A stretch of 64,000 nt of DNA from Amoebophrya sp. A120 (GCA_905178155.1 CAJINV010000016.1:1269386-1333385), one strand, 5' to 3'. Positions 3,001-59,900 are shown, counted from the first letter of the stretch. Numbers and translations: made by a program. The notes: generated by a model not told the origin, from the sequence alone.

Positions 3001-6000
3001 CACTATATCCCAACTCTGTTTTCGCCAACCAACCATACTGCGCCAACAACCATACTGTGCCAACTTGTGCCAACTTGCCAACAGAACAACGCCTCACTTT
3101 TATGCCAACAATTCCTACCACTGATTCTCGCAAACTTCCAACTCGCTACCACTATAACGGGAGTATACAGCCAGGCTCACAACAACAAGAAAAAGCTGCA
3201 GCCTGCGGCAAAACCCGTAATTCCTGTCTGGATGAATGCATTCACTGGAGACACTAAGCGACAAGCGCCAGCCTGAAGTGACGTTTAAACAACCAAGTTA
3301 AAGGTAAAAGATGCGAGATTGAATACTGATCTTCCTGATCGCTAGACTTGGCGTTCAAGAAGCATGCTTTCCACATGACCGGAAGCTCGAGGCACAGAAA
3401 TACAATTGGCAAGGCAGCACAAGTAGAACACGACTCTGCACCCAATCCGCAGGCAGCACAAGAAGAAAATGACTCTGCACCCGAACCGCTGGGCTCACGG
3501 AACCACCGGGTCTATTATCGGTTTCCTGCTTCGTGGGCACCCACTTGGATCGTTGTCAGGGGCTGCTAACTCGAAGGCGATCCAGTCAGGCGTCGTTCAC
3601 AGCCTCAGCGGCGCCCGACTAGCTACCCGTCCCGGGTACTTGCGTCTCCGCCGACAAGTACTGAAACTCGTGCAGCTCGGGAACCCGCGACAGCCGGAGA
3701 TCGGGGGAAGTGGTTTTGCCCGCGCGCCGCCCCTCGGCGGCTTCTCGCTACCCCGGCTTCGACACCCTCGCGCGAATACCGCCTGAGTCCTCGTATTCCG
3801 TATACTCTAGGCGAGTGCCATCCGAAGGTGAAACATGCGACTTCCACCGGCCCGTTCTAAGGTGGAGGCGATCCGGTGCGACCCGAGCCTTGCCCTTCAA
3901 CACATATGCACGTAGTCGCCAGCCTACTGCATCGCAGTAGCGCCTCTCCTACGGAGCTGCATTACACCTTGCCTCAAAGTTCTGTTATCGTGAGCTCTTG
4001 TCCGCGCGCCTAGATTGGAGGAAGATAATCTTAGAGAAAAACTACATAGCTCACTAGCTTAGCAGGGGGACCAGGCGAGACGGATGCAGTAAAGCCTGTT
4101 GCTCGCTGTCTTTTTATGAACTGCTTCTGTTCAAAAACCTTAGGAGAAATGAGCAACGCACCAGCCTAGCACGGGAACAAGGCGAGACGGATGGATCCAA
4201 TAATAACGCCGCTTTTGGTTCGTGTTGCGCGTTGTGGAATACCAAAACTTATCAGCTCACGGAAACCTACATGGACATGTTTGAGAGGCCTTTTACTGAG
4301 CGACTACTCAGACTGATTCGGGGGGGGCTGGCGGTCTGGACATCGGGCCAGGCGGGGAGGCTGGGGGAGGATCTGAGGACTGAGTGGGCGTCCTCCCTGG
4401 CTGAACGCACGTCCTCTCCTCTGGTGCGGCGACTGACACCACGATACTGCTCCGCCGCTCCGCAGCACGGCCCTCGTCGTCGACCATAGTATGATGGCGT
4501 ATTCTCATCTGAAAGAGGAGGCAGAACACGCATGGGATCTTGTCGCTAGATTTTTATATGTATGTGGGCACTTGCTCACGTGCTTGCATTATCAGGGACG
4601 GCGGGATTGCTCTTACGAGGGTGTAGTGTATCTGATTGGGCCTGGCGTGGCCTTGCCTCCTTCCTAGCGCATGGGAAGAGTTTGCATATCCTGCAGCATA
4701 GCGTCCTAAGAGCAATGCCGCAACGCAACGCCAAAAGATGCAGAACATAGCGAAAACCGCATGACAAGAGAGCACGTCGAGCTTCTACCATCTTGCGACC
4801 CTTACATCTCCCGCGTTCTGCCTGAGGGGGAATGGATAATTTAGCCCGTCTGCACGGAGCCTGTCGTCGTTGCTGCTTGCGAGGGCCGTGCCGCCACCCC
4901 GGTCGTGCTACTAACCCTTTCTGGACGAGAGGCCCGACGCGCAACGAGCGTCGGGAGAGTCAGAAGAAGTTTTCTTCTATCATTCAACGACGCGGGCGAG
5001 GCAACTTCGCCAGGAAGCGGAGACCTCGCATCTTTATCTCTCGTGGAAATGCCTCCGGAGCCGACCACTGCCCCTCTTCACGCCGCTTTGCTTGGCAGGG
5101 AACAAGGTGGTCGCATCTCGCACAACCTGAATGCCCAACTCGAGGCTCGTCGTGGTTCGCCCACGCGTGTAGGCGCGTCCATTGTGATTTCTTTTTGGCG
5201 ACGCGGGGGCTATGTTGCGTGCTCTACCGGCGCCGTGGCGTCGTAGTGAGTGTATGTCTTGTGCGCCAGCACGATTTCCCTCAGTGGGGCGGCGTCCAGC
5301 GGGCCTAGGATTTGAATTGGCGTATTGTCAGAATTTGTGGTAATCAGGAGTATTGATGCTGATACTTCAGCAGCAAGTGCTTCCAGCACTACATGATCTC
5401 CCCAACATTTGTCTTGGGAATGCTGGTGGATGTACTCTGCCCACTCGCTGTCGGAGCCGACGAACGGCTGATAGTGTGCGCGGCGGAGGATGAGGCTCTG
5501 AATGGCACGACGCCGGAAATGGTTGTAGTTTGCTTCTGACCCAGTAACCATTCTGCTAACCGCCCGACACATGCAGTTTCCATCGCCGATCACTTTGTCT
5601 AGGCGGAGGCCCCGCCCTGCGAGGCGTCCCCGTAGTCTGGCTTCTAGTCGCGCGTCTGCCTCAGCTTCCTTGAGGGAGATCTCCACAGCTTGATCCATCG
5701 CCGATCGCTTCCCAAGTGCTGCATCCTGGCTAGGAATGTTGGAACCGAAAACCCGCTGCGGGATCGTCTGCGGCCGACTTAGGTGCAGTGGACCGGGAGG
5801 TAGGCGCACTTGCTGGAACTCGTGGACAGGGGGGGGAGACGGGCCCCCATTAGTTGCTACCGCTGGGCTTGGGGGCTGCATCTGTGATGGTGCTTGCCGC
5901 TCCCTGGAGCGGCTTCTGACACGGGAGTCGGCGTTTCGCCAATCGGCGACTTTACGGGGGCCACCGGGCGCGGCCCTGTTTGGCCTCTTCCAGCAGAGCC

Positions 6001-9000
6001 TAGCGCGAACATCTTCGATTTCTGCCTCCGGGACTTGCGTGTGCCCGGGCTCCGCTGTGTACATGCGGTGGACCATTGGTGGGACGTGGGACCGGAGACC
6101 CGGAACCGCGGACGGGTCTTGTGTTGCTGAGGGTGGCGGCGCACGCATGCGCGAGGCCTCCACCATGTTGTGAAATACCTCCGCTGCCCGGTCGATGTTC
6201 TTCTGTACTTCGGGGTCTGGCATGACATCGTCCCGAGGCTGGCGAGCGGGGGCTTCGACAGGCCACGTTCCTTTGGGCGGGGGGGGAAGACCTATGAGGG
6301 TGAGGAACACCCTCAACACCTCAGCCGGCTTTTTCATGATCTTCGAGACCGATGGCAGCACCTCTCCCGCCTCCAGCGGAAAGTTGTCGCACATGGCCTT
6401 GCACTCCAGAGTTAGCACATGCTTTGCAAATTGCGAGATCAACACTTGCCGGCCTTGCGACTGAGATTGCCTTTTTTCTCCGGCCTCCGGGGGAGACGGC
6501 GGAGGGGATTCGCTCGTCGGCTCCTGTAACGCAGCCGCCGCGCGATCTATCGAGCCAAACTCCTCTTCGTCCACCGCCATGTCGTCCGCGCCCTGGCTTG
6601 GGTGCTGCGACTCTGCATACATCTGTTGCGAGAAACACACTGCAGCATCTAGCTTCTTGCTGCATAAGCCACATTTTAGGTGAGAGGAGCCGACTACACT
6701 CCTGGCAGCACGCGCTGCTTCCCTTCCGTCGCCCGAGCAGAGACTCCATACGATCCACTGCGACGTGGGGGTGAGGCCGCGAAGGACACGGCGGGCGTTT
6801 CCTAACTGGGAGGCGATTCTCCCTCGGCACGCTCCTGTTTTTGATTGAGCGGCCCGAGTTTGTAGCTGCCGCGCTACTTCCGCCCGCAGGCACTTGCGGG
6901 CGAACTCCCGCAACTGCCGTAGCGGAACGCGCAGGCTTACGTAGTTCGTCAGCGGCTCACTCGGCAATAATGTAGACTTCTGCAAGATGTCGGCCTCGCT
7001 GTGCGGGGATATCCCCGAGTGCCCAGGGCACCAGTGGAATATGAAGGTGATGTCAGGGCGCCGGTCCGCTAGCTTCGTGATGGCCGCCCGGATTTCTTGC
7101 CATGTTTCCTCCGTGCGGAGGGACTGAATGTTCTCCAGCGCCGGGCTGGCATCGCACTGGAAGATCACGAACCTCAGGGCCGGGTCCCAAATCGGCGACA
7201 AGTCTTCGTCTAAGCTGTCCGCCAGCATCAGAACTGCCGCTGCGTGGGCGCCTGACTCACCCCAAAACGTGGTCAGTGTGTGTCGCAACCTCATTGCTAG
7301 AGCAAACTTACCTTCTTCGTCGCAACCCCTCCTCATGACCACCGTCCCCATGCGCTGCTTGGGGCCGGGCCCAGGTTCTGCACCCGGATCGTCGCCACTA
7401 TCCGTTGCCACCCAGAGGAGAGCGGGCCCCAGGGACCTTTCTAGGCCTCGAAATTCGTCGCGGACCCGGGCCGCGACTTCTGGAGTGTTAGCTTTACTGA
7501 GCGCCAGGTCGTATTTTTGGAAGACTGCGGACGCAGGAAGAATGTGGACGTTGCTTGGCAGGGGGTCAGCTGGGATGAGGTTGTGCGAAATAGGGAGTGA
7601 CGCCCAACCCTCTCGCCTCATGTTGAAGACATCCTGCACCTTTGATGACCGGGCGAACTCCGCGTCGTCCAGGCCTATCGCCTGCACGCAGAGGGTAGTG
7701 CGCTCACCTAGCGCCGCTGTGGAGGGCACTACGGCCCCCGCGCTGATGAAGGTGCTGTACGTCGGAGCCGTGAAGGAGATGCGAAGCATGCGGCGCAACG
7801 CTGTCTCCGCGATGTCGTCCAGTTTGATCAACGCGCCCGGACACAGGAGCGACTTTGCGCTTGCCATGTACTGCAGCGCGTTGAATGCCTTCTCGTGGTA
7901 TTTGTTAATTGCTGCAAGCGGGGAGGCGGCTGCCGCATCTACGGCGTCCTCGTCTGTGGACGAGCATGAGAGGACTCGGCGGCGTTGGTCCTCGAAGTGT
8001 TGCTCCCAAGCCTCGGGGTTTACTGTAAGTGGCATCCCGAGGACTGTGATGTAGTTCGCCTTATTATACCTACGAAACAGCCCGGGAAGCCGGACCGACT
8101 TCGGCGCATCGGGGTCCAGTTCCACCTCGACTTCCGGTGGGCAGAGCGTCACGCCGTTGCTGAGCGTAACACGAATCCGCTTCAAAAACTGCTCCAGTTT
8201 TTTCTCGTCACCGGCGGCATGTTCTGGCGAGCGAAGAACGGCCATTCTCCAGTCCGAGACCGGGTAGGGGATTGACAAGAGCTTGTTGCCCCTGTCCTGC
8301 AATTTCTTCACCATCTCGCCCTCGGATTCTGCTGTTACGAAAATTGCGATGTCGTCGCAGTAGGCCGCGACGCACTCCCCCAGCGTGGAATACAGGCCGG
8401 CGGCGATGAGGTGCTTTTCCACACAAGCCCGGAAGAGGGCAGGCGATAACAATGTGCCCTGGCCCAACCCATCGCAGATAGGAAACGCCACCCCCATCAG
8501 CCCGTCCACGGCAATCCGCACCGTTCGCCCAGTCATCCAGTAGCACACTGCCTGCATTACTTGCCGGGATGCCCCCCGCTCTAACAGAACCTGAAGGACT
8601 TCGAGGAGGCTGCAATTTTCGAAGCCCCCCGTAACGTCCGCGACTATCACCGCGACGTATTTGGCGTTCCCTTGCATGGTGCGGATCAGGGCTCGCAGCA
8701 GGCCGACGGCGGGGGATAGCCCCGGAATGAATGCCGTATTGTCTCGGAAGACATTGAGAGACTGCTGTAGTTCGCCGTGCAGGATGCTTTCCGTGAATTT
8801 ATCTTCGACATTCAGCATCGAAATAGGCCGCCAATAGCGACCCAAAAACTTCGAAGCCCCTTTTTTGTTGTGCTTGTAAAGCCAAGACACTAGGTATTGT
8901 TTCGTCCAGGTAGGGGGGTCGTGGTAGTCGTTGAGGGCGCGGCATACTATATCGCACAGAAGGACACAGAGTTCTAGGGAGGCGAGCAGCAGCGCGGGCG

Positions 9001-12000
9001 GGACGCCGTTGCTGCCTGCGGCGGCGTGGGGGTTCAGCCGCTTCTGCGCTCGCATCGCCATGTCACGGGTAGGCTTCAACGGTCTAGATGGTGCCGCTGC
9101 GATTAATTTCGCCGCGGCCGCCGCCACGTCGTGCTCCTCTTCTGGGGTGCGCAACAGCCCGGCTGGCTTGTTTTCGCATAGCCGCACTCGGAATTGGTTC
9201 ATCGTCTCTTCTGTCGACGCGGTGAGGGATCCATCCCCACGTAGTAATGCGAGGTGAACGGAGGGAAGACGGGACTTGTTGTGTGGGGCTTTTGCCCGAT
9301 CAAGTGCTGTCGCCAAGGTGTCACCCGTGAAAGACGGCTCCTGCCCCGACGCAGCCGCGGATGCATCGGAGAGAACCTGGCCCAGCGTTTCCTGGTCTAT
9401 GCTGCTCCAGTGGAATACCTTTCGCCGGGTGAGCGATTGCGGGCAGGAGATGCTGTCTGGCCGGTCTTGCTTTTCTTGCCACCCGTCTGCGTTGGCGCCT
9501 AGGGCCGACCCATCCTGCCGCAGTTCGCAATCGATGCGAAGATGAGCGGCCCCGTTCATCGTAAGGTAGCGCGGTTCGACGAGCCGCGTGCATAGCACCG
9601 TTTCCGTGGTCCGAGGCTTGAGCAGGACGACGTCCGGCTGGGATTCCCCGGAGGGGAAAGTTACATCGTCCGCCTGCAGTGCGGAGGTGAGCCCTTCTGC
9701 TGTCGCGAATTGTGACAGTTGGCTTTGCAGCCAGTTCCCGCGGGGTGTGTCCGCTAGCACAGGGCCCGTGCTGGCGTTTAAGTCCCCGGCGATGCCTACC
9801 ACCTCCGCGGCATTGCTTCTCGCGAAGTTCATGAGGCTTTCGCGCTGCCCTCGGACTGGTAACTCTGGAACGCTGCATGAGGCTGGAGGAATGTAGCCGG
9901 CCAAGAGACGCCCCGCGATGTCCTCGTGGGCTACTAAGATGCAGGCCATGTTCGGTGCCCCTGGGATGGCCGCTGCGATTGCGTGGTCTGCAGGCCGGAG
10001 AGAGTGCGCCACTAACACCATGGCTCGGGGGGCGGACCAGATGAAGAACCGCCCAAGGAGTGTGCGGTAAATCAGGTCCCGGATTGGTTGCTGCAGTGCT
10101 TGAGTCGGCGTGTCGGATTCCGACACGACGACTACCAGCGCCCGCGACGCGTTGATCTCATGCACCAGCAACGGCCACTGTGAAGTGAGCGCGCGAGACA
10201 TGTTTATCGCCATGATCACGAAGCGCCGCCCTTTGGACCAGTCCTTGTCCGGCTTGGGTAGCCCGCCGGTGAAGTTCAGTCGGAGGCTGGCCAAGTGGTA
10301 CGCGGTCGATGTAGTTATTTCCCTTCTATTGTCTGTTTCCCCCCTGCGAACGCCCGGCGCCAGAACTCCTTGCGCCAGCTCCGCTAACTTCGCTAGCATC
10401 GCGCTCTGCAAGCGGCCGTGGCGCCCGATTCTGCACAATATCACATGTGCCAGCAGTGACGCTGGTTGTGCAGTTTCTTCTCCACAATGTGAACAGACGT
10501 AGAGCGCGTGCTGCTGAAATTCGATCTGCGACTGGGACTGGCTAACCGGAACGCGGAGGTACACCGGATAATCTGAGGAGGGGGCGGGGGAGTCGCTTTC
10601 GCCGGGTTTCGGGAACCATTTCGTCGGCCTTGGCTCGTCCGGTGGCGCCCGAGTGACTTCTAAAAAGGAGGCCAAGTACGGGTGGACCATCGGGTTGCTC
10701 GCCTGTGTGGCTTCTAGCCGGCCCGTTGCTGCTCGCACGCATTCCGCACAACGCCCATGCTGTTCGAGTTTGTTTACGGCAAGGTTCCACCGGCTGAGGC
10801 CCCGCGTTGGTGCGCAGATCATGTCCTCGACCTCTGAAGCGTCGGCCGCGGGCCGGTCGTGCATTGACCAGAAGAAAGTTCCCGGCGCCGCTGATTCGAT
10901 CTGCCGCTTCAGGCACCCGTGGCCCTTCGTCACCACTGCCTTGTCCTCGTCGTTGTCTACGCACCTGATTCCCGCGCTGATGAGCGCCTCTGGGTTTGGC
11001 GGACGGTCACACCAGTCCGAGGTTGTAAAGCCGCCGTAGTTGTGAATAGCCGCGGCCCCTTTGCGCCTCGGCATGCGGCGCGGATCGATTCTGATGCCGT
11101 GGTCTGTGCGGCGAAGAGCTACACCGTCGCTGGCTGCACTCGATAGCGGCCAGACGCCGGCGTAATCCGGGAAGCAGTCTGGGATTTCTGCGAGAGGACC
11201 CTCGCGGCAGGAGGTCGCCCGCCATACCGCTAGCGGAATTTCTGTTTCGTAGAACTTTTTACCCCCCGGTATGCACACCCCTCGGCGAAGCGCTTCTTCT
11301 GCAGCCTGTATCCTCTTAGACTCGCGCTCCCCCTCCTTCGCCGGGCGCGACATTTCCGCAAGGCAATGCGGGCCACATTCTAGTAGTAAGTTGTGCCGCT
11401 GTGCAGAACGGAATGCTGCTGCTGTGTGCTTCGGTACCATGCGCGCCACTTTTTGCAGTTTGGTCAGTGACCCCGCTGGAAGAAACGCCGGCGTTAGTAC
11501 GAACGCCTTGTTTGCTACGTATGTATCTGGGATCGCGTCCTCGTCTACCGCCGGAAGCGGGAGACCCGGCGGCCCGTCGCCCACGTTGGCATTTGGCGCC
11601 TCTGGGACGGGGGCGAGCTGCTCGAGCCGCTTGATTACAGCCGCGCGTATCGCTGCCATTGCCAACAGAGGCACGACCCACATCGTCGCTCTTTCTGCCC
11701 ACTTCCTGCGTGCTCTGTGCCCGACGAGCCCGCGTCTAGAGCTGTGCGGTGCACTGAAGGATTAGTGTCTTCGCTTTCTGTCTTGTGCCAGCCTATACCA
11801 ATAATAATTTAACTTCTATACATCAGTATATCACCAGAGTTGTCATGCAGATTTACCATGACAGGAACATTTGTGATGCGCAACCCCATGACAGGCATTT
11901 TCAATCGTGTTTGGGAACTTGTGATGCTGTAAACAGGATCAGAAGGTCGATTTGTGATGCGGCTTTCCTTGCTAACTTGCACTACCTTACGGACTGAAAC

Positions 12001-43846: not shown

Positions 43847-46365
43847 CCATTGCTGCCTCTCGCTCTCACCAGATGGACTTGTTTTACTCGAGGACAAAAA
43901 TCATCGCTGAGTCCGGCTTGATAATTTGTCTACAGCCATCCCTCACGACACTATGACGTAAGTAAGTACCAAAACCCTCGTCCCTACTGCGGGACAGAGG
44001 GTTCTGTAATCGTCATGGAGGATGTGAACAAGTACGCCGGCCACTTGTGTTTTGCCCTTTTCAAATCGTAAGCCATCAAATTAGGACAGAGGCTGCAACT
44101 CTACTTCATCAGGACAGAGCATATCGTGGCCCAGGAGCACCATGATCATGAGCCAAACTTCAGCTGCAACAGAAACACACCGCGTGGCCCTCCGCCACAT
44201 CCAGGCTCGCGCAACGAGCCTCGACACGAGGCGCGCGCGTGCTGGCGCAAATCTTGCAGAGAGACTCGCCGCAGCCGGCACGCAAGCGCCGGCCTGGCCG
44301 GGATGCCTGAGAGACGGGGCGCATTCAATCATAATCCCGCCAAGCACCGGCGGGCCACGGGCCGGGCGGGGCTCACTCCAATGGCGCGCACCACAAGCAA
44401 CCACCCGCCGAGACACTGGCGGGCGCGCGCCCGCATCTAGGCAGCGCGGCGCCCAGCTACGTGATGGGCCCCCGCGGGGCCGGCCACACCGCCCAAAGGC
44501 TCGGGGCCGGCAGGACGACCCCCCTGGCGCACAGGCATGGGGACCAGAAAAGCAGGCGCCACACATCGCGGGCGCCGCTTCTGATTGTCGCGCGCGGCGC
44601 TTCGTTGGAAGATTCCATCGGCATGGCGCGCGTCGCGTTGTGGAGAAGTGGTTCTTGGCGGCGCCGTTGCCCCATCGGCATCGGGTTCATCGAAGCGGCT
44701 TTGCGGCGCCTTCGATCTGCCCACTCCGCAAGCTGCGCCGCGACTTCTTCGCCGTGCATCCCGCAGGCGCCCACCGCAAGCAAGAAGACCTGCGAAGAAA
44801 AACAATCAACACCACACCACTACCGGCACTAATAACCACACTAATCAGACAACAACTACGAACTCGAACACTTTTTCATATATGTTATTTCCTTCTCAGC
44901 CTTAGGCTCGGTCTCGGAGGAAAAGCTTCCGCTCCGGGTAGAAGGACATTTAGAGTGAGTTAGACACGCTTATGATCTTTCTCATCTCCTCGTGATCACA
45001 TCACTTCCAAGAATTCTTCGCTCAACATCTCCGCCGAAACCACTCGAGTATCTGAAGAGAGAAGATTAGAACCACGACTGAGAGGAGAACAAATTTGATG
45101 AACGACCTCTCAACAAAAATGTAGATTTGCTTTTGCATGCGCCACCAACACGAAACACGACACCCAAGAAGGTGACTCACAATTTCGTGACCTGTCTGGT
45201 TTGTAGCGGCTGCCTCGTGGTGCAACTTTCTTTTTCGTGTGGTCAATCATGATCTCAAGGTTGCAAAAAAAAATGTCTCCTTCAGGAAGATTCAGTTGCT
45301 GATGATCATGTTGAGCATCATGCTTTTCATGGTACTACCTTGCTGCCCTGTAGAAGTCGCATGAGTGTACATTTTCTTGGAAATATCAGCGACAACTACT
45401 TCATCGACTCGTTGGGCCAATCTGCTAACATGGCCGGCCAGCTGTCGAATGAAATCATTCCTTCGGCCGCTGCCTCTATTCGGCAATAAAGACAAAAAAT
45501 GCTGCAGTTACAAGAAGGAGAAATATGTAGCTCCTAACTCATGGTACATTGCTTCTGCGTTGTTTCCGTCAAACACTAACAAAACAAAAAGCGAAGCTGT
45601 GCAATGTTTTTTTTTGCTATGAGTGACAACGACGAGCAGGCTCCTCCACTCGCTGGTCCTAGTCAATCCAAAAAAAGTGCAACGAAGTGTGTGCCAAAAA
45701 TCTGTACAAGTGAATAGTCAGTGTGAAAAACAACTGACATGTCGGTCTGCATTCGACATAAGCAATCCGCTCATGATATTCAGGAAATGGAAAAATTGAA
45801 ACCAAAATGAAAATCGACATTTCAAAATAAAGGAAAATAGTTCGAATTCATAGTCGATAAATTGCGCCTCGACGTGGCGTTCAATTCTTGTTTGTTTGTT
45901 GAGTTCTTACGCTTAGGTCTTAGGCATTATATCGATTCATATTTTTCGCTAAAATGAGAATGTTCTCTGTGGTTTTTTGTCCTGCCAAAAACGATGGTGC
46001 TGCACAGCCTGCCTTGCGGAAAGTAAAGCAGGTAAACAAAGATATTTTTAGTCGAAGAGGAGCACCCTAAGCATCGCGGTCCTTTCATCTTACAAATCGC
46101 AGCTGTGTAGTAGAAACGGTTGCTCTCAGTTGAGAATCGTGGCACAAGAATGTTGCAGCTCTCAGGTTTTTGAATGAAGATGGAAGAAGCGCTAATATCA
46201 ACATTTGATTCCGGATGCGCTTATAGAAAAACAAGAGATTGAGATTGATATAGTAGTAAGAAAAAGTCGTAGCTCAAGTAGATAAAGTGTCTACTACTTC
46301 TGCTGCTTAACTTTCTTGTTCCACCCTTCTTCATCCTTCTCTACCACGTGGTGATCCACCGACGT

Positions 46366-49341
46366 TCACATCGTCTTCTTCACAGCTTCATCACCCTCCT
46401 CCTCCAGAAAAAACTTCTCATCCTTGGTCAGCAACTTCGCCCGGGTGGAATGCGAGTACATGTATTGGAACACCCGGAGGAAGTAGTCCCGCGTGTATTC
46501 AAATTGGTACAATTCCTCGTACAATCCCTTCTCCTTCAACCACCCCTGCATCGCAATCGTCGCTTCCTTCAAGTGGTAGTGCGGGATCTTGGTGAAAAAC
46601 AGGTGGTGGATCACGTGGCAATCGGTGATGTTATACATTGCAAAAGTATCGTACTAGTAGAAATAGCATTACAAATTTTGCCAGAAGGAAAAATGGAATT
46701 TGTAATGCTGAATGAGGGAAGTAACCAGATTTGTCATGCATGACTGAAATCACCACGAGTACGAGTTAGTACGATACTTTTGCAATGCATAAATGTGGTG
46801 GTGAAACAAGTCAATCACCGACCCGAACGTGCGGTCAACGGTTTCAAACGCGGCGGTCGAGTATTTCCAGGTGGTATTGTCGTACACCTTCACGGTCGGG
46901 TTGTGGTGCTGCAGGTAGGTGACGGTGTAGAGGTAGAAGCACATGGTGAACCAAGCGGGAAGGTATACAATCGCGAACTCCGAGAAATTTCCGTTGAAGA
47001 AACATTGCGTGTACCAGTACCCGTAAGCAAGGACGACGAAAACGGAAATCCAGCACTTGATCAGTTCCTGATTTTAAGGTATGATATTTGGTTTGATGTG
47101 CGAAATCACTCACAAACACCACGATCCTCAAAGCGAATCTGTCATGCTGTTTCATCTTCATACAAAAACGAAATGATCCATTGCGATCTTCATCTCTAGT
47201 TACTTTCACACGAAGACCAAAACTTCTTTATTTATACCTGCGTATCCACATTTTCCCACAACCTGCATCCGCTGAAGACGTTTGGAAAGTAGTGGGTCCC
47301 GTCCACCCCTCCGTACTGTTGGGGCCACAGCATATGGATCTGTCAGGATCGAAATCGACAAAGTTGAAATGATTTGTAATGCATAAAACGGACATGAAAG
47401 CCGTCGCCCAGATTCCAAGTGGCGCATGACAAATTTGGGTAGAACCGAAATCCAGTTTGTCATGCTGTTTAGGTAAGGAAGAGCTCCTCTTGTCATGCTA
47501 TTGCAGCAGCTCAGCTTCTACCCCTCAACAGGCTTACAATCTGCCTCACTTGCCTCCTCTGCAAGACAGGCGTTCTATGGGCTGCATTTTATGCATAGCA
47601 AATCACTTCAACTCTAACGATTTCAATCCTCGCACTCCCATACAGCAGGTAAAACGCGTAGCCAAACACCGGGTACACCGCCGCGGGAATCGCCGGGTAG
47701 TTTTTCACGAGCGAACTGTATAACAGTGCACAACTCCCCCTCCCCCTCATTTGTATAGCATGAACGGCAATACAAGCATCAGCAAGAATGCTCGTTTTGC
47801 ATGACAAATTTGCACTGGATTAAAGTGCTATTTGGGCTACCAAAACTTGTCATGCAAACAGTGCTAAGAGGCAAAGGGTAAATTGGGTATTTTGCATGAC
47901 AAATGAGGGGGAGGGGGAGTTGTGCACTGTCATAAACTGCACGCCTTGTCGAACTTGGGATCGTGGGCCCAGGGGAAGCTGTAGTCCTTGTCCAGATGGT
48001 TGTGGTACATGTGATGAAACCGGTGGCTCCGGGCCCAGGACTGAAACGGCACAAAGATCGCCCCGTGGGTCAAGTTTCCGAAGAAGAAGTTGATATTTGA
48101 ATTGTTGCTGAACGTTCCGTGTCCGCAGTCGTGACCGACGACGAAATTCGCCCACATGAAAAACCCCGCGAGCCAGTAGAGGAAAATCGCCAGGACGGGT
48201 TTGAGCAGGATAGAAGTGTGGAAACTGCTGATGTTGATGTTGTTGTTTTCCTGCTGTTGACTACTGGTGCTGATTAACGACGATGAATTGTCGAGAAACA
48301 AGAAACCGTCCAACTCCCCGCGGTACAACATCTTCAACCCCGTCAACGCGGAAAACACGACCGCTAGATCGAACACCATCCACTTCAGGGAGCGCGCCAA
48401 ATCCTTCTGGAAACACTTCTTCGGCAGTGCCTTCCGAAGATATACTGCGCAAAAGTATCGCACTCGTACTAATTGCAAACATGCATGACAAATCTTGCTT
48501 CTTCGCCAAGTCAGCATTACAAATACCATTTTTCCTGCTGGAAAAATTTGTATTGCGATTTATACTAGTACGATACTTTTGCAATGCATAGGAGATCCTC
48601 CAAGTTGAAATTTTCCGGGTGGTATCCACAGAAAAAAACCCACGCACATCCAATTTGTCATGCAGAACACGCATCAAGTCATGTGTTTGTCATGCAAAAA
48701 ATGGATGTGGATGTGTGTTTTTCTGTGGATAGGTGGACCTGGCTGTCGTGCTCGATGAACTTCAAAAACTCGGTGTCGCGGAGGTTATCAAATGTAAAAG
48801 TGTCTGGGTCTGGAAAAATGCAACTTGTGATGCTGCATTTGGATTCCAAAAAAATCTGTATTGCATGAGTACCAAAGGAAATGCAATTTTTGCTACGCTG
48901 AGAAGGCATTTGTCATGCGGAATACGCATCAAGAAGCCCTCAGAAAATCTGTATTGCTCGGGTATGCATCACAGACATCATGGCTCACGCAAAACGTGCA
49001 TGACAAGTGTCAGAATCTTCCAGACCCAGACATTTTTACATTTGATAGAGGTTTTGGTGTTTCAATTTCGACTTCGTTTGCGCTTCATCGTCGGTGTCGG
49101 ACGAAGAAGTTGTTCCCGTTGCACCCCCTTCGTCTTCAGAGGAAGACCTGGACGCCCGCGTGGTGGTGCGGGTCAAAGTCGCACTGCTGGTGCGGGCGAT
49201 GTCGTTGTCGGTGGTGTTGTGTGCGAATAGTTCTTGTTTGGTCGCAGCTTTATGCTGCTGGTGTGGTCCGGAAAAAGAATTCTCATCCTCGGTCGACAAG
49301 AGAGTCTTGTCCGGGTACCCGGGAATTGCGGCGGTGGACAT
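46366..49341 (-). CDS. Membrane fatty acid desaturase (delta-12/omega-3 type)
   Basis: His boxes HDCGH, HRFHH and HHITDCHVIHH; also DLRKALPKKCF, VTYLQH, TVDR and IPHYHL. Frame is continuous across six introners and one GT-AG intron (47068-47237). Confidence 0.9.
46632..46791. mobile_element. Introner (family F5), 160 bp
   Basis: TIR tatacattgcaaaagtatcgtacta; TSD gatgt/aatgt; interrupts the HHI|TDCHVIHH region. Confidence 0.9.
47333..47642. mobile_element. Introner (family F6), 310 bp
   Basis: TIR tatggatctgtcaggatcgaaatcgacaaagttgaa; TSD cagca; frame restored. Confidence 0.9.
47719..47934. mobile_element. Introner (family F4), 216 bp
   Basis: TIR tataacagtgcacaactccccctccccctcatttgt; TSD aactg; frame restored. 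Confidence 0.92.
48441..48590. mobile_element. Introner (family F5), 150 bp
   Basis: TIR tatactgcgcaaaagtatcg; TSD gaaga/ggaga; frame restored DL|RKAL. Confidence 0.9.
48623..48731. mobile_element. Introner (family F7), 109 bp
   Basis: TIR tatccacagaaaaa; TSD ggtgg; frame restored. Confidence 0.9.
48786..49047. mobile_element. Introner (family F1), 262 bp
   Basis: TIR tatcaaatgtaaaagtgtctgggtctggaa; TSD gaggt; frame restored. Confidence 0.92.
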
Positions 49342-51154: not shown

Positions 51155-52891
51155 CGTCTCAGAATACTAAACTCAGTGCGAATTTTGCGTCAGCTTTCTG
51201 CTTCTCGTAGTTTACCTTTAGGCCTCCAAGAGCAAGAGCGACGAGCTCTAGAGGACTGATGAAAAAGAGAAAAAATCCTTTTTCTTCGGTAGATGAGGAT
51301 CGATGACTACGAGGAAGGCGATTAGGATTATCACATGCGCCGACAACCGCTTTAGGTTCTCTATATCCTACCTGTTAATCATGTTGCTCATGTGGTTGTC
51401 GACGATCGTCCAACAACGAACACTACAAAGACACTCTGCGCTCGAAGAAAATCTATCAAAGACTCATCTTCATCGGCGAGGGCGAGCGACGACAACGGCC
51501 ACGCTAGACGTGGAACTCGAAAGCGATAGCTTCGCCCGCCTCTACAACATTGGCGGCAGGCGTCGATCAATAACAATGGCACACTGATAGATAATTTATG
51601 AAAGGAAACATCACCGGCGGCGCGCGCTCGCATGTTTGTATGACAAGGGCTGCTTCTTCCACGCGCACGCCAGAGCCCTAATAACGAACCCGACCACTGA
51701 CTGGCGGCAGCACCCGATTTACAAGCGAAAAGGGCGCGCCCGTGGGCAACAGGGTAACTAAGCTGGCAGGCAACGGCGCACGGGACTAGGCGAACCGGGC
51801 GCGCCAACCGCGGCTTCTTCGGCCATTGCTTTGCGCGGCCCCGCCGGATTCTGACTGTCCCGGGCGGGTGGCTGCGAACATTCGCGGGCGCTGGCACAAC
51901 TAGGGCGCGCGCCCTCGCAGCGTGCTAGTTGACGAAATACGACAGAGATAGCCCGGGCACCGAACCAGCAACGCGCCCCAGGCCCGAAGCGCTGCAAATG
52001 TAAGCGCCACCACAGCCCCACGACGCAACCCAGCCTGCCACCAGAACCAGGCGGGCCAAGGGCGCGCGCCCTGCCCCATCCCCCCGGAATGCCGGCCGGC
52101 CGTCTTCGATACGCCGGCCATTCGATTCCCTGCCGGGCCGAGGTCCGTCGAGGAAGGCGGCGCGGAGCATCTTGGACGCGAGCGCCTCGCTTCCACGATG
52201 CTCCTGGCGTGGAATGCGTGCCCCAAGCCATGTCGGGAAGGCGCCCGCGGAGGAAGCGCAAAGATGCCGCGCCCCGGCTGAGTGTGTAATCGCTAACACA
52301 ATCCAGGACACTCCTGCAGGAATCGGCGCGCAGGCTCCGCCCTTCGTGCGCCTGCCGGACCGCGTTAAGCCGGCCGGGGGCCCGCCCCGCCGCGCCCGCT
52401 TTGTCCCTGTCCTCCCGCATTTTCGCAATTTTCTCGCTCGCGAGTTCGGAGAGTTTCCGCTTCTGCTCTAAGGCGGAGACGAGCCCGAACACAAAGCGGG
52501 GCCGCTGAGCCTGTCACGGACGACATTGAAGGCCTGGCCCGGGCATTCCTACAGCGGCCACTTGCTGGCTTCACGAGCCGGGACGTTCTGACGATCGCTC
52601 GCAGTTAGGACACAAATACGACAGACATGATGCATCAAGCGCGACGGCAACTATCTGTCTCTCTCCTGACCCGATCCCGACACAGCAGCAGAACACCCGA
52701 GAAACCGACACGACATAGGAACACAGAGCTCGACGAACCAAATCAATCTACATTGCTGAAGCTTTCTTCTTCAAAGTTCAATCTCAAGATGTACACGGAG
52801 CTATCCACGTCCTGTTTATTTAAGTTCGATAATGAAAATTCAAGCTGAGTTGTGGAGGAGCCATCAAATACGTACAAAACGAGAAGCAGTC

Positions 52892-52970
52892 AGCCGCCTC
52901 TACTAAAACTAGTAAGCGTGGTCAAGTTATAGCTCATGAATAGCTCCAGCTGCACTCTTAAAGTTCTGGA
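52892..52970. repeat. Structured ~80-bp repeat, copy 1
   Basis: agccgcctctacta..tagta.gcgtggtcaag...tcatga...tccag-ctgcactcttaaagtt-ctgga; recurs at 54921, 55069 and 56385. Confidence 0.9.
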
Positions 52971-53114
52971 ACGCCGCCCCGCAGCCAAGCATTAGAAGAC
53001 GCAAAGCTGTTTCGACGGCTTGCGTTGAACGTGTCGGGAGCAGCGCAGCCAGGGAAATCGAAACACGCGAATAGCAAGTCCAACACCGGCGTGCCCGGGG
53101 TAACCCAGTTTTCG

Positions 53115-53666
53115 ATGAAGCAAAAAAGAAAATGGAATCGAGGAGCAATCGTAGGAGCGTTCAAAAGCCGGAAAAAGGCGATCCTCAGAAGGTACAAGGT
53201 GAACATGAACACCAAAGCCCCAATGAAAAATTGGCAAAAGCAGCGAAAGTGTAGAACGAAGGCTCAGAAGGCAGGCTTAATTCAGCTCATGACACGATGG
53301 AGACAGGCGAAAATGGAGCGCGTCGAGCACCCTGGCCGCTCGGGACGAATGCAACGTCACATCAAGAAGACCACCATCGACCCGCTCCGCAAGAAAATTG
53401 TGGCCCAGGGGAAAACGCTCTTCGATTTCCGGAAAGTGGCGAAGAAGCTGTTGAAGCCCCGGCGCGCAGCAGTGGCTACCAAGAAGTCGGAGCTGTTCGT
53501 GCCGAGTTCTTCCACCCGGAGAAAAGCGGAGGTTGCTGCCGGGTCTGTGCCGCATGTCCGACCAGCACACCAGCCTACCATGGATCCACGTGAGTTTCGA
53601 TTCGTCGGACCAACAACCAAACTGCCGAAGACGCGGGACATGTCGAAGGGGTTCCGACGCCCCTGA
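53115..53666 (+). CDS. Highly basic (K/R-rich) hypothetical protein, only credible plus-strand ORF
   Basis: ORF 53025-53666 with first ATG at 53115; intronless; lies just downstream of repeat copy 1. Confidence 0.45.
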   Translation: MKQKRKWNRGAIVGAFKSRKKAILRRYKVNMNTKAPMKNWQKQRKCRTKAQKAGLIQLMTRWRQAKMERVEHPGRSGRMQRHIKKTTIDPLRKKIVAQGKTLFDFRKVAKKLLKPRRAAVATKKSELFVPSSSTRRKAEVAAGSVPHVRPAHQPTMDPREFRFVGPTTKLPKTRDMSKGFRRP

Positions 53667-54889
53667 AGCCAGATGAAAGGAGTGGTTTCATTTTCCGATC
53701 TTCCTCGTTACATTTTCCCCAAGCACTCTCTCGCGATTCAGATAAACGTTGCTGCATGCACAAAGTTCACGTTGCGCAACTTGTATAACTTGCAGGGGAG
53801 TGCGGAAGTATTTATGCAGTTTTTGAACAGACATGCCTGGAGCTCGACGCGCCGAGTTGTTTTTTAAGGAAAGTAGAGTGCTAAAGATAGAAAGATCTGC
53901 TACACGATGTTTCTGTATTCAACCGGGCTCAGAAGTAGTAGACTCTCGGTCAGCGAGACGTCCACTCAACTTGCGAGAACGAAGAGGGATTGAAGGGCTT
54001 GCACGGTACTATTAGATATTTCTTGATGCTGTCGCTTTCCCTGGCCTCGTAGCAAGATTGGATGAAAGTTGCGCGAGAATCGTGTCAAACAAAACCATGA
54101 CTGTCTTCTTTTAGAACTAGCACACTGTAGTGCCAGTCGAAGCCATTTTTTTTCCAATTTACTTTAATAAGTAATACTTATTACTCAGCCCTTGTATCTG
54201 CTGCCTGGTGCAATACTCGCTGCGTTCTCGGACAAAAGGCCCTAGGCTGTGTGGTTTCAAAGCCTATTGTCGAGAGATATTGCCCTGTCAAATATTGAGT
54301 TGCAGAGGATCACAGCGGCAGCAATATTTTTTCATACGAGGAGCTAACTGTTCAGCCGGGCCATGGTTTCGCGATATTCTGGCCGAGCTGGATCTTCACA
54401 CATCCTTTTTTCTATCAATTCTTTCGGAATTTAGATTTTTACTGTTTCACTTTTCAGTTTCCCTTCTGTTTGATCCGATTCGAGTCCAGTTTAGCTTTAT
54501 AGTATGTCGCCTTTGATTTACCGGCCTTCGTGCAGTCTTTCTATAAGATTAATAATTGAACTTAATCATAGAATAGGAAGATTGGCGAACGAGGAACGTA
54601 TCTCACATCACAATTGCCCACGACACACATCACAGTAGTTAGGCAAACGAGTCACGCGCAACATTTTTAAAAGCCAAGCAGTACTAAAGTTGAGGTCAGG
54701 ACCAGTCTAAAGCTTTGCCAGGCAGTTTCTGTAGTAGCAGCGTGCGAGCGACCCAGGCCAAAGCCAAAAAGCAAGCGCAACAGCCTTTTTATTCTTTTCC
54801 CTTATCGCTTTTTTCTAGTTACACAACGTCCCTACCGCCGCTTTCGAGCGAGCATTTGTAAACTTACTCTTTATGAGTATTTACAAAAA

Positions 54890-55000
54890 AGCCGCCTCTA
54901 CTAGAATTTAGTAGTTAGTTAGCCGCCTCTACTAGAACTTAGTATGCGTGGTCAAGAGTTAGCTCATGAATAGCTCCAGCTGCACTCTTAAAGTTCTGGA
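54890..55000. repeat. Structured repeat, copy 2 (54921-55000), preceded by a partial duplicate (54890-54913)
   Basis: Direct sequence identity with copy 1. Confidence 0.9.
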
Positions 55001-55068
55001 ACCCTATATACATGCGTATTTGCCCTGGGTTTTTGTATGACACGAGGGAGGGGCGCAGGTTCATCGTT

Positions 55069-55145
55069 AGCCGCCTCTACTATAGCAGTAAGCGTGGTCA
55101 AGTTTTAGCTCATGAAAGCTCCAGCTGTACTCTTAAAGTTCTGGA
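55069..55145. repeat. Structured repeat, copy 3
   Basis: Direct sequence identity with copy 1; the loop of the first hairpin varies. Confidence 0.9.
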
Positions 55146-56384
55146 CCGCCCCACCGCTCGCCACTCGCCGACAGCCGAGCCGAGCCGAGCCAAAACAAAC
55201 ACATAACATATAAACTTTTTCTAGTTAATATAAAAGATCTGTCTATTTCTTTGATTGCCCAGTCGTAAGCACCTGCTCTTCAATCTTTATCACTTTGTCT
55301 AGTCACAAGTAAGCTTTAGTCTTCCTTTGCTACCATCATTCTCTACGCCATTGCTGTTTCCAAAGAGCAAGTGAACCCACTACGGTGGAGCGGAAAGTTT
55401 TCGAACAATTCGGACGTTTGTGGACTTTCAGAACTTGTTTTTGTCGCACTAGTGTAGCGCCCGGCGGTGAAGAACTTGTTTTTTAGCTCCCCTGGTGCTC
55501 TAGGGACTTAACCTTACATAGCACGCCGACCGGTAGTACTACTACAAAAAGGGATGAATAACTTATGCCCGAAGAGGCTTAGCATAGTCCATCCCTCGCA
55601 CTGCTGTTGCGTCAGCAGATGCGGCGACAGGCGTGGCGTTCGCGGGGACCTCATGGCGAGGCTAGTTAGTTTTGCATGGCGGTCTGCGTGACTGCATCGC
55701 CGTGGCCGCCACCATAGGCCTGCTCGTGTAGTACATTCCGCGTAGCGCCCACCTTCGACGACCTACAAATATTCGTAGCGCGGAAGCCCACTGTGCGGAT
55801 CAGTGGCACTAGTAGCGCCTTAGACACCTCGGCCAAAAAAAAACAAGAAGGTGGTAAAATTTTTTTTTATATATAGCGTTACAGTACTGCAGTTCAAGTA
55901 GATCAAAAAGTTTTCGTACGAAAAACAAAAAGCAACTAGATCGTAAATTCCCATCGGCGAGTCCAGTGCGCAGCGGGCTGTCCCCACCAGTACACGAGTA
56001 TATTCCCACTAGGGAAAAGAGGCGTCCGTGTGGGCCGGGCAATTTGCACGTACATGGGAAGTTTGATGGAGGGGTTCAGGGTACATAAAAAAAAAAAACG
56101 AAAAGAAAAAGATCAAAATGATCCAGGCCGAGGTGTAGATGCATGCAAATGGGAACTTGTATTAGACGAATAGTAAAAAGTAAGTGCTTGATAACTTAAA
56201 CAGGGTTTAGGGTAATCAGCCGGTGCTCTGGTTGCGGCGCGTGAAGCTTTAGCATCGACCGGTATAAGACTTTCGGTGTGCTTGTCGGGTTTTGCTCAGT
56301 GGCCGAAATTCCCAGTCCCACCCAATAGGCATGCTATACGGCCCGGGGAATTTGTATCGCGGGCGGGGTACAAGCATCACTGTT

Positions 56385-56461
56385 AGCCGCCTCTACTAGA
56401 ATAGTACGCGTGGTCGAGCTCTAGTTCATGAAAAAGTCGGCTGCACTCTTAAAGTTCCGAC
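56385..56461. repeat. Structured repeat, copy 4 (divergent, compensatory stem)
   Basis: Stem tccag/ctgga is replaced by gtcgg/ccgac around the same 16-nt loop. Confidence 0.88.
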
Positions 56462-56997
56462 ACGCCAAACCCCATGCTATGCTATGCTAAATTAAATCTG
56501 ATCTGATCTGAATTTTTCAACAGCGTCAAGGAAGGTGATTCGTCTCCTCCTTGAAAAAAGAATTTTTCTCTCGTCAGGTGGCTCCTCAGAAGACTAAACA
56601 AGAAGCACGCTTCGTCTGTAGCAAGTAACTTACTGTAACTGTCATAGTCATTACTAGTCCGACATAAGGGTCGCAAACCAACTGGGATATTGAAGAAGCG
56701 AGACTACATGATCACTCATCAGCACACTAAGAAATAACATTTTTTTTGTCATGTATCAATATTATGCGGCACTCTACTTTTAGGACTCATACTCGCCGAT
56801 CATCTTGAATCAACAATCACTTTAACTTTACCATCAAGCTTTTTGTTCTAGTAAGCACGCAAGTTGCCGCCCTAGGAGGTGTTTTTTTCTTTGTAATTTT
56901 TGTTCTATGTCATCTTGATCTGGATCTGCACAAGAACGTTATAAGTACGTAGGATCTAGTTCTAGTCGTCGACCTGATCATCTTCCCTTCCCTCCAA

Positions 56998-59900
56998 TCA
57001 CCTTCCCCACAAACTGTCCGCCGTTCCCCCTCGCCGTGTTGCCTTCGGAATCATGTTTTCCTTGTCATCTTCCGACGCACTGGTGTTCTCCTCGAACTGC
57101 TCATTTTCCGGAATGCTGCTGGTTTCCAGGCTCTGCAGTGTGCCACTCGGTCCCCGGAACGACATCCGCGGCGCGGGCCCGTCCTCGTATATGCGCTGCA
57201 AAAGTATCGCACTAGTACAAATCGCAATACAAATTGGCTCAGCATTACAAATTGAATTTGTAATGCTGTTTTACCTTGGGATGAAGATTTGCAAATTGTA
57301 ATCAATGCATGACTGCGATTACTACGAGTACGATACTTTTGCACAGGATATCGTACTTTTCAACGCCATTTTCGGTAAAACTCCCCGCGTCACCTATGGG
57401 AGTGTCAGGTTTGAAATCGACAAAGTTGAAATGGCTTGTGATGCAGAAAATCAATACCAGTTGGAAGCCCAATTTTCAAGCGGTGCATAACAAATTTCCC
57501 GAGCACCGGAATCCGATTTGTCATGCTGTTTGGGCACAGACGACTGCTTTTGTCTTGCTACTTTAGAAGCTCTATTTCACACCCTAAACAGGCTGACAGT
57601 CGGCCTTACTTGCCATCCCGGCAAGACAGGCACTTGCATTTTATGCATGACAAACTCTCTCAACTTTGTCGATTACGATTTCAAACCTGACGCTTCCATA
57701 TCACCCCCGGCCCCGCGGGAGGAGGAGTGGATATACTCTGCAAAAGTGGGTGTAGAATCGCATTTGGAGAAGCGTTTTTCGCATCTAGTACTTCTCGTAT
57801 ATCATCCTTTATTTTCGAGTTATGTTTTTTATGCCAGGTGGAGCAGCATTGCAAATGCAAGTTCCGCATTTTTACTACATTTCTTTGAATTCGATATATC
57901 ATTCGAGATGCGATGTACACTTCTAGAGGAAAAGTGCGATGCAACTTTTGCAAGAATGCATAAGAGACGACATCCGGCGAAGATTTGTCAAAAACGTCCG
58001 TCGCTGACCACATGTGGCCCGGCTTTTCGGTCAGTACCGCGGTCATGTTCTGGGAACTTTGCCGGAGGAACTGCGCTATGGATAGCAAAAGTAATATCTT
58101 CATACTCGTAGTAATCGAAATCGTAGGCATGCGCCATAGTCTGAAGGTTAAGGTGAGTCCGCATTTACAAATTTCATTTATCATGATCCTCCTGACGAAA
58201 TTCAAATTTGTCATGTGATTCTGGCACGAAGATACTTTTGCAACGCATATTCGCGCGCCATTGGGCGGTGGACTCCGCAAAGTGCTGCTTGGCTTGCGCG
58301 TTCATCTGGTGAGATGCGTTTTTTTATGTGATGTTCGAGGACCCATAGTTGTACTCCTGATAATTACATTTGTAGTCACGCAGGTCCGAGAACAAGGGAG
58401 CGCCGAGGCGACCAAGAAGAATAACTCGCGTTTCAGTTTGTTTCGCTCCTACACAAAGCAATTTCTTATGCAAAAAAACAAAAAAAATCCTACCTGCGAA
58501 TCGTCCGCGGTTGCGTGGAAGGTCTGCGCACGCTGAAACGTCGCCCGGATCCGCTTCGGTTGCCCCAGTTGTGGGCTCGAGTCCCGCTGTTCCGCCACCG
58601 ATTCCGGGTTGTGGTTTGCGAAGGTGCCTCGGTGGGAGGGCTGCGTATGACACCCTCAGAATGGAAATCCTCAAAGTGCAAATGATTTGTGATGCATGAA
58701 ATGCGACACCAAAAAGACTGTATTGCAGAGAACGCAATGGAGGCCGACTATTCTGCTTCTACGGGTTCAGAATTGGGCTGCTGATTAGCATGAGAGAAGG
58801 GCACCCCTTTGCCTAACTAGCATGACAGACACGCTTTGGGTGCCCGGGAAATTTGTCATGCGCCGACTAGAAGCGATGCTCCAACTGGAGTCGTTTTTTT
58901 GCATTACAAATTATTTTCACTGTGAGGATTTCTAAGCTGAGGCTTCCATACTGCGTGCCGGTCACGTAGCTGTGGTTGGCGAAGGTTCGTCGCTGGCCCC
59001 GCATTTCCCGGATCTTCATCTGGTTCTTCTGTTTTGCCGTGGACTGCTGGAGGTTTCCCTGCGGGCCTAACTGATCAAACGGATCCACGGCGGTCTCCGC
59101 GTTTTTCACCCGGCTCAGCATATCCGTGCTCCGCCGCAGAAACTCATCCGCGTTTGCAGGGAGCCGACCCCGAAATTCGGTGGAGGGTGTCGCGGAGTGG
59201 ATGTTGCTGCTCAGCGAAGCGGTTCCCCCACCAGCGACGAGCGGTCCGGAATGCGTCCCGGACGGGGTAATGCGTTTTGCTCCCGCGGCGGACCCGGCCG
59301 CAGCTGCTCCAGCAACAAAGGAGGTCTGTTTCAAATTATTGTCCATATCGACTGTGGAAGTGTCGCTCAAACCGGGGAGTGGTAGCCCAGCAGTCGTTCG
59401 CTCTCCCGATAAGAGCAGCTTGCCGAGCATTTTCTGCTCCACGAACTGCGACCGCAATTCTTGCCGCTTTTTCTGCTGATCCTCTTGGATGATCTTTTGT
59501 TCCTTCGCTTCTTGTTCTGTTCGCGGAGTGCTGGTCCACTCGATGTCGCCGTGAGAACTGTTGCTGCTGATACCTCGTCTAGTGTTGTTGTTCCCGTCCA
59601 GATATTCTGTGCAAAAATATCGCGTTCGTAGCAAAAGTAACTAGAATTAATACAGTGATGCCTCAGTACAAATTACCTTGTTCTTCCCAAGGTGAAATAT
59701 ATTATAATATATATTATCGTGATTATGACAAATGGCATGACAAATTCCATTTGTGGTCATGCTGAGCGAGAGCGAGTTGGAGTTTGCAATTGCGATTACT
59801 ACTGAGGCGATATTATTACTGTTTCAATTCATACCACAACCTCGTAAGTTTTCGTCTCGTAGTCACTGGAACCCGATTTCTCGCGTTTGTTCCCCAACCC

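Follow-up and report, generated by a model that had tools for sequence, protein, structure and literature searches.

The closest described counterparts of the repeats studied here are the 3′ tails of stringent LINE/SINE pairs. The tail of UnaL2 is a stem-loop with an internal loop and a 5-nt apical loop, followed by [UGUAA]n with n usually 3 (PMC1636434), and reverse transcription of stringent-LINE tails starts at the repeat, with template slippage (PMC1636434, PMC4176376). The structured core that we describe resembles the tails of eel UnaL2 and UnaSINE1-2 and of zebrafish ZfL2-1/2 in its terminal stem-loop split by an internal loop and in the 5-nt apical loop (PMC1636434, PMC4176376). As in these tails, a short unit usually occurs about three times behind the stem-loop, and elements with different bodies have the tail in common. 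The core differs from them in having three hairpins over 80 nt rather than one, and a repeat unit that varies, often in two sets, rather than one fixed unit. Unlike in stringent pairs, there was no tRNA-derived head, no target-site duplication (TSD) was seen, and no partner LINE was found; likeness to known LINE/SINE tails at the sequence level was compared through Rfam only.

Other systems share further traits with the locus. Partial head-to-tail tandems are formed by the pseudo-LTRs of Penelope-like elements (PLEs; Naiad/Chlamys, MRC1) and by non-LTR retrozymes (PMC8557442; bioRxiv 10.64898/2026.07.22.740005). Further traits in common with them are a short module at both unit ends, promoter-like sequence in the terminal module and the lack of a clear TSD. 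In contrast to pseudo-LTRs and retrozymes, we found no hammerhead and no GIY-YIG or reverse transcriptase (RT) partner and saw no inverted 5′ copy, and the tails are short triple repeats instead of the single 30-40-bp extension of PLEs. In the WEIRD/Mg-SINE/MGL chimeric retrogenes of Magnaporthe, transcript copies are likewise fused directly and include one small non-coding unit, and fused transcript copies are attributed to LINE template switches (PMC2104539); here, by contrast, no flanking direct repeat was found, and a single-event origin of the pile would be conjecture. Amoebophrya is an early-branching dinoflagellate in which most repeats are unclassified (PMC7789003). Its introners are non-coding mobile repeats of the same kind of genome but carry terminal inverted and direct repeats and lie in genes (PMC7789003), whereas the core element has neither repeat type.

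The window, i.e., the whole stretch of 64,000 nucleotides that was analyzed, is eukaryotic; most of its genes lie on the same strand, and introner-like repeats with inverted repeats are numerous. Families of the latter, e.g., at 48441-48590, 48786-49047 and 57390-57700, consist of long inverted repeats of the GCATNACAAAT motif with short terminal direct repeats. GC-rich, GCGC-rich non-coding patches of promoter-like appearance lie at the starts of gene blocks (51700-52500, 44200-44800), and a similar patch follows one of the additional core copies described below, L030.

Copies of the core and their predicted fold

Four full copies of the core lie on the + strand, at 52889-52970 (copy 1), 54918-55000 (copy 2), 55066-55145 (copy 3) and 56382-56461 (copy 4, of the GTCGG/CCGAC stem type). 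An earlier note on this DNA had reported four copies in the same orientation, and they are present, the conserved core beginning 3 nt upstream of where that note had placed it. Pairwise identity among them is 81-92% (BLAST E 1e-16 to 1e-30), and a covariance model searched against the 64 kb returned these four alone (101-108 bits; next match, 9.1 bits). A fifth copy, reduced to the 5′ part (54890-54913, +), duplicates the beginning of copy 2 in tandem. Copies 1 and 2 have a 1-nt insertion in common and an identical start point, the first base of the core; both are without the block found upstream of copy 3, and copy 2 ends 2 nt past the last stem, without a tail.

A metagenome scan yielded 35 loci, 4 of them true copies (L013, L030, L031 and L036; 107-113 bits), all from one other assembly, and 31 of them chance pattern matches (at most 20.8 bits). 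As only 4 of the 35 are true copies, the scan revealed no relatives outside the Amoebophrya-type lineage. Viral contigs gave 2 matches, the same sequence both times with no further likeness, and then 0. In run X1, 52 contigs lie on copy 3, with a summed depth of up to 3019 compared with about 40 on single-copy edges; this depth is inflated by overlapping contigs and does not equal copy number, and we infer from it that the genome has tens of core copies. Some copies in X1 contigs are decayed, with gaps and broken pairs.

In an alignment of eight copies, i.e., the four of the window with L013, L030, L031 and L036, 162 of 168 cells are paired on the + strand and 144 on the − strand, which favors the + strand. 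Taken singly, the copies do not exceed shuffles in folding (z 0.09 to 0.71, + strand), and thus the support for structure is comparative only. Hairpin 1 is composed of 5 bp, a 3x3 internal loop, 4 bp and a loop that does vary, as the note had it; all nine pairs are invariant and hence show no covariation. The middle hairpin, with 81% pairing, is weak. The last hairpin comprises a stem, an internal loop, a second stem and a 5-nt CUUAM loop. Its switch from TCCAG/CTGGA to GTCGG/CCGAC, which the note had read as three compensatory pairs, is present, but the three double changes represent a single lineage split (5 versus 3 of the 8 copies). A third type of last stem, ACTCG/CGAGT with the inner ACT/AGT changed to GCT/AGC, is also fully paired; it was seen at loose contig ends only and was left out of the alignments. 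There are, in all, three fully paired versions of this stem.

The proposal of a selected single-strand structure is supported by the pairing on + and by the three stem types; hairpin 1 adds no covariation. Comparison of the copies makes selection on the last stem well supported and selection on the remaining stems plausible. The TCATGA palindrome is invariant, as claimed, and 27 invariant columns of the eight-copy alignment lie outside the drawn pairs. A closing helix between an upstream G-run and a downstream C-run folds in five of the six copies that carry the upstream block, but its conservation over the alignment is poor. Between the two ends of the core there is no pairing.

Rfam searches of the window and the region, and likewise of the individual copies and of L013, L030, L031 and L036, gave chance matches off the core only, and the core remained matchless in stretches of 330-370 nt at E values up to 10. 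ARAGORN found 0 tRNAs on the core, Rfam gave no tRNA match, and the B box is absent from all eight copies, which speaks against a tRNA or a tRNA-headed SINE. By eye, the note had seen no match to the tRNA, hammerhead, HDV, twister or pistol consensus. A literature search, partial in coverage, turned up no description of this element.

Upstream bodies, 3′ boundary and repeat tails

Copy 3 is preceded by a block (55002-55065, +) that abuts the end of copy 2 and contains a CATG box, GCCCNGGG, TTTGTAT at about −33 and a G-run. Copy 4 ends a longer repeat whose non-coding body spans 55444-56381 (+), with the upstream block at about 56319-56381; copies 3 and 4 have about 65 nt upstream in common (74% over 143 nt). 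The combination GCCCNGGG..TTTGTAT occurs in the window solely upstream of these two copies (2 versus 0.00 expected) and recurs in L013, L031, L036 and contig ends. The upstream boxes are tight palindromes with promoter-like spacing, and block and core together could form a pseudo-LTR that supplies a promoter and a start site; a cleavage site and a gene for a small RNA are other possibilities. Aligned with the remainder of the window, the block scored no better than shuffles; a link with the introner motif, suggested by a likeness seen by eye near 58840, was rejected as not above shuffles.

Two loci of the other assembly show how far the copy-4-type repeat extends. L013 matches 55802-56473 at 90% and L036 matches 55807-56511 at 93%; as 55802 and 55807 mark the limit of the DNA compared, the upstream stretch shared with copy 4 is at least 570 bp. 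On the other side, homology ends shortly past the last hairpin (at 56473 and 56511), and unrelated DNA follows. Within their assembly, L013 and L036 are on separate contigs and have different downstream DNA, indicating that they are paralogs and not one locus. In run X6, a 1311-nt contig departs from the window at 55444 and continues for about 935 nt further 5′ in other sequence, and the copy-4-type repeat is thus about 2 kb or more long, with its last ~1 kb in the window. No Pfam domain was found in its body. About 1.5 units of the telomere-like motif TTTAGGG lie inside the body at 56203-56214 and are kept in L036 and nearly so in L013.

L031 has only the 63-nt block and the core in common with copy 3, so that different bodies end in one module; it is weakly like L036 back to −149 (z 3.9). 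Upstream of its block, at 224-320, are small repeated hairpins with a CTCTT loop, loosely like the last loop of the core. Downstream flanks are unrelated in 21 of 21 pairs of copies (z at most 1.9). The flanks had been said to differ between copies: this is true downstream, but upstream copies 3 and 4 share the ~65 nt, and the repeat that terminates in copy 4 is 1 kb long or more. In run X1 the summed depth falls from 2372 to 238 within 16 nt past the last stem and fades over about 40 nt on the 5′ side, where the gradient may reflect subfamily divergence instead of truncation. Among copy-4-type loci the core shows 1 difference in 75 positions and the body 55/554, 27/558 and 46/557, a contrast that is significant in two of four pairs (p 0.009, 0.23, 0.03 and 0.08), the pairs not being independent and L013 and L036 having been chosen by a core pattern.

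Short repeats lie behind several copies. The C-rich tail of copy 1 (52971-52990, +) is shared with L030 (96% over 102 nt). Copy 3 is followed by a C-rich linker and AGCCG x3.8 (55146-55191, +), and copy 4 by a C-rich linker, ATGCT x3.2 and ATCTG x3.2 (56462-56511, +), in which the homology with L013 and L036 ends. Units of 4-6 nt repeated about three times within 60 nt past the last stem were found in five of the eight copies, four of which carry two sets, against a background of 5/1064 window tiles and 1/68 locus tiles; by the rule applied, the other three copies have no such run. The units vary (AGCCG, ATGCT, ATCTG, CCGT, TCCAA, TCCACA, CCCATG), and the only period-5 arrays in the TRF list are those behind copies 3 and 4.

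As judged from these comparisons of sequence, the core is the conserved 3′ end of a non-coding dispersed repeat family of an Amoebophrya-type genome. Of the options offered by the note, the terminus of an unknown element is the one favored by the fixed 3′ boundary, the match of L013 and L036 and the repeat tails.

A head-to-tail pile of fragments

From left to right on the + strand, the locus consists of copy 1, a gene fragment together with sequence from downstream of that gene, a 235-bp repeat, the part-copy, copy 2, the copy-3 unit, about 250 bp and the copy-4 unit. The gene fragment (52989-53666, +) comprises the final ~227 codons for an Amoebophrya protein of 1640 aa that belongs to no known family, and is fused directly to the tail of copy 1; it begins exactly at that tail, at about residue 1416 of 1640, and the remainder of the gene is absent from the window. 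It is 94% identical to P0004 and 74% to P0005, and 94-96% to an Amoebophrya sp. A120 record. P0004 and P0005 represent a family of proteins about 1650 aa long, Cys-rich around residues 1040-1100, for which no Pfam, PDB or distant homolog was found, as was also the case for a K/R-rich ORF. Other copies of the 3′ part of this type of gene differ mostly at third codon positions. Behind the fragment, a 271-nt GC..AG stretch (53668-53938, +) is skipped in one run X6 contig, whose short side is 28 nt; it may be an intron lost in a paralog, of which this one contig is a weak indication.

The separate ~235-bp repeat (54656-54890, +) ends in a hairpin and an A-run. The hairpin (54855-54887; 5-nt loop, z −3.45) resembles the last hairpin of the core. 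In run X10 this repeat has other flanks and is then followed by ATCTG repeats.

The copy-3 unit begins at −63, directly at the end of copy 2, and in one X6 contig a copy-3 unit is followed by another one (joint of 55169 to 55002). Tandem units of 148 and ~181 nt were seen in all. The pieces begin at different points, a pattern of 5′ truncation that divergence can mimic, and several pieces of the pile appear to be cut at the 5′ side.

Candidate functions of the core

We favor, with a probability of roughly 0.55, the reading that the core is an RNA structure recognized by a retrotransposon RT and that the repeats are non-autonomous retroposons. The core is an uncatalogued structured terminus of a mobile repeat family and most likely represents a variation on the RT-recognition tails already described. 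In favor of this reading are the fixed 3′ boundary, the repeat tails, the cut pieces, the decayed copies and the lower divergence of the core than of the body. A trans-acting RT would bind the last hairpin of the core RNA and prime at the tail, where slippage would produce the triple repeats; it would copy leftwards and often stop early, leaving pieces cut at −940, −63 or 0, and serial insertion or template jumps would pile the pieces, including the host-gene fragment, head to tail. Against this reading, the first base of the core is where both copy 1 and copy 2 begin, and only 2 nt of copy 2 lie beyond its last stem, as would fit a discrete RNA. The variation of the repeat unit, where known tails keep a single one, the three copies without a run and the palindromic, promoter-like upstream boxes also count against it. 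A search for TSDs gave chance-level 7-8-mers only, the 5′ ends of L013, L031 and L036 being unfixed and the copy-4 junction set by eye. No partner RT with the core tail was found in the window, whose LINE scores at most 4.4 bits. As neither a partner RT nor a TSD was found, we do not class the core as a member of the stringent LINE/SINE tails.

RNA runs X9, X10 and X11, which barely cover the locus, gave 2, 232 and 0 reads on 51600-57300, with none on the core, and X10 gave 0 reads on copy 3 at 80%. Most of the 232 X10 reads fall on the 54656-54890 repeat, at about 92-99% identity and with different flanks.

A less likely alternative is that the upstream boxes drive a multicopy family of small-RNA genes, whose product would be snRNA-like and possibly a stand-in for U1, or else a spliced-leader RNA of variant type. 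On this view the long bodies would be hitch-hikers, and retro-copying would have produced copies 1 and 2. The identical start base of copies 1 and 2, the restriction of the paired boxes to the upstream side of copies 3 and 4 with their recurrence in L013, L031 and L036, and the tandem units of 148 and ~181 nt are consistent with it, as is a donor-like GTAHG, paired in hairpin 1. Two-mismatch likenesses to the U1-70K- and U1A-binding loops occur in U1 order in 8/8 and 7/8 copies, but the third stem type has another loop in place of the U1A-like one, and the core has no U1-type 5′ arm pairing with the donor and no Sm site within or behind it. That U1 was not detected in Amoebophrya A25 or A120 (PMC7789003) also speaks for this alternative. 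A spliced leader is opposed by the lack of the tail of the invariant 22-nt DinoSL exon and by the would-be exon end being the most variable part. For any small RNA, the lack of an Rfam match at E up to 10, even over 330-370 nt, and of a B box in the core copies is unfavorable, and it is left unexplained why the upstream sequence common to three loci, 570 bp or more, should stop at the core.

It seems rather doubtful, on the same data, that the core is a discrete RNA of 80-90 nt, either a hammerhead-less ribozyme class that sets the RNA ends of Penelope-like retroposons or a replacement for the missing U1 in a genome with mostly non-standard intron ends. Were the RNA discrete, it would be a testable candidate either for an as yet undescribed class of ribozymes or for the factor that fills the U1 gap of Amoebophrya splicing.

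We regard it as unlikely that the core is a self-cleaving RNA of an undescribed kind, located in the pseudo-LTR of a retrozyme-like, non-autonomous element of Penelope type, with a putative cut just before the first base of the core that would set the 5′ end of copies 1 and 2. Besides the identical 5′ start of these copies, it would account for the partial tandems (copy 2 followed by block and copy 3; the joint of 55169 to 55002) and the 27 invariant columns outside the drawn pairs. Yet the hammerhead core motif, CTGANGA, is absent from both strands of all eight copies, there is no Rfam ribozyme match, no closing helix or pseudoknot common to all copies was seen, and the window contains no PLE RT. 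Partial tandems, the frequent lack of a TSD and the absence of canonical hammerheads are described for Naiad/Chlamys PLEs (PMC8557442), which speaks for this reading, as does the derivation of retrozymes from pLTRs (bioRxiv 10.64898/2026.07.22.740005).

It is improbable that the core serves, as single-stranded DNA, to mark the end of a Helentron/HINE-like rolling-circle transposon, although such an element would also capture gene fragments and form tandems. One fixed end, tandems, a captured gene fragment, microsatellites and a 3′ stem-loop, all seen here, are HINE/DINE-1 traits (PMC4067079), and DNA also tolerates G-T pairs. Near the ends of the copy-4 unit, however, subterminal inverted repeats of 12-15 bp are absent, perhaps because only one unit end is present; no CTRR occurs within 15 nt past the last stem, and there is no common T-run boundary. 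The 80-nt core with its conserved loops is larger than a 5-10-bp palindrome, and no Rep/helicase domain was found in the scanned ORFs.

Recombination or nicking sites bounding cassettes (attC-like), which the note had proposed and to which the same-orientation copies between unrelated pieces would correspond, are very improbable, as the intervening pieces are cut gene or repeat fragments and not intact cassettes, no pairing joins the core's two ends, such sites would not be expected to have variable repeat tails, and a scan of 27 + 19 ORFs revealed no recombinase or HUH domain.

If the core is an RT-recognition tail, it would provide a structurally defined RT-recognition signal in an early-branching dinoflagellate and a handle for finding the partner retrotransposon, and could account for the copying of host gene fragments to other places in the compact genome of a parasite. 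It would be unusual in that one tail is common to unrelated bodies while the terminal repeat unit is free to change. The RT-OTU LINE of the window (5210-11683, −) was considered as partner and is ruled out for this copy, which lacks the core structure (at most 4.4 bits). Its 2157-aa ORF is intact and contains an RT domain (E 1.8e-13) and, at the C terminus, an OTU protease domain (E 3.7e-9); endonuclease- and RNase H-like motifs were seen by eye only. A GCGTT x2.6 run at 4719-4731, about 480 nt past the stop of this LINE, may be its 3′ end.
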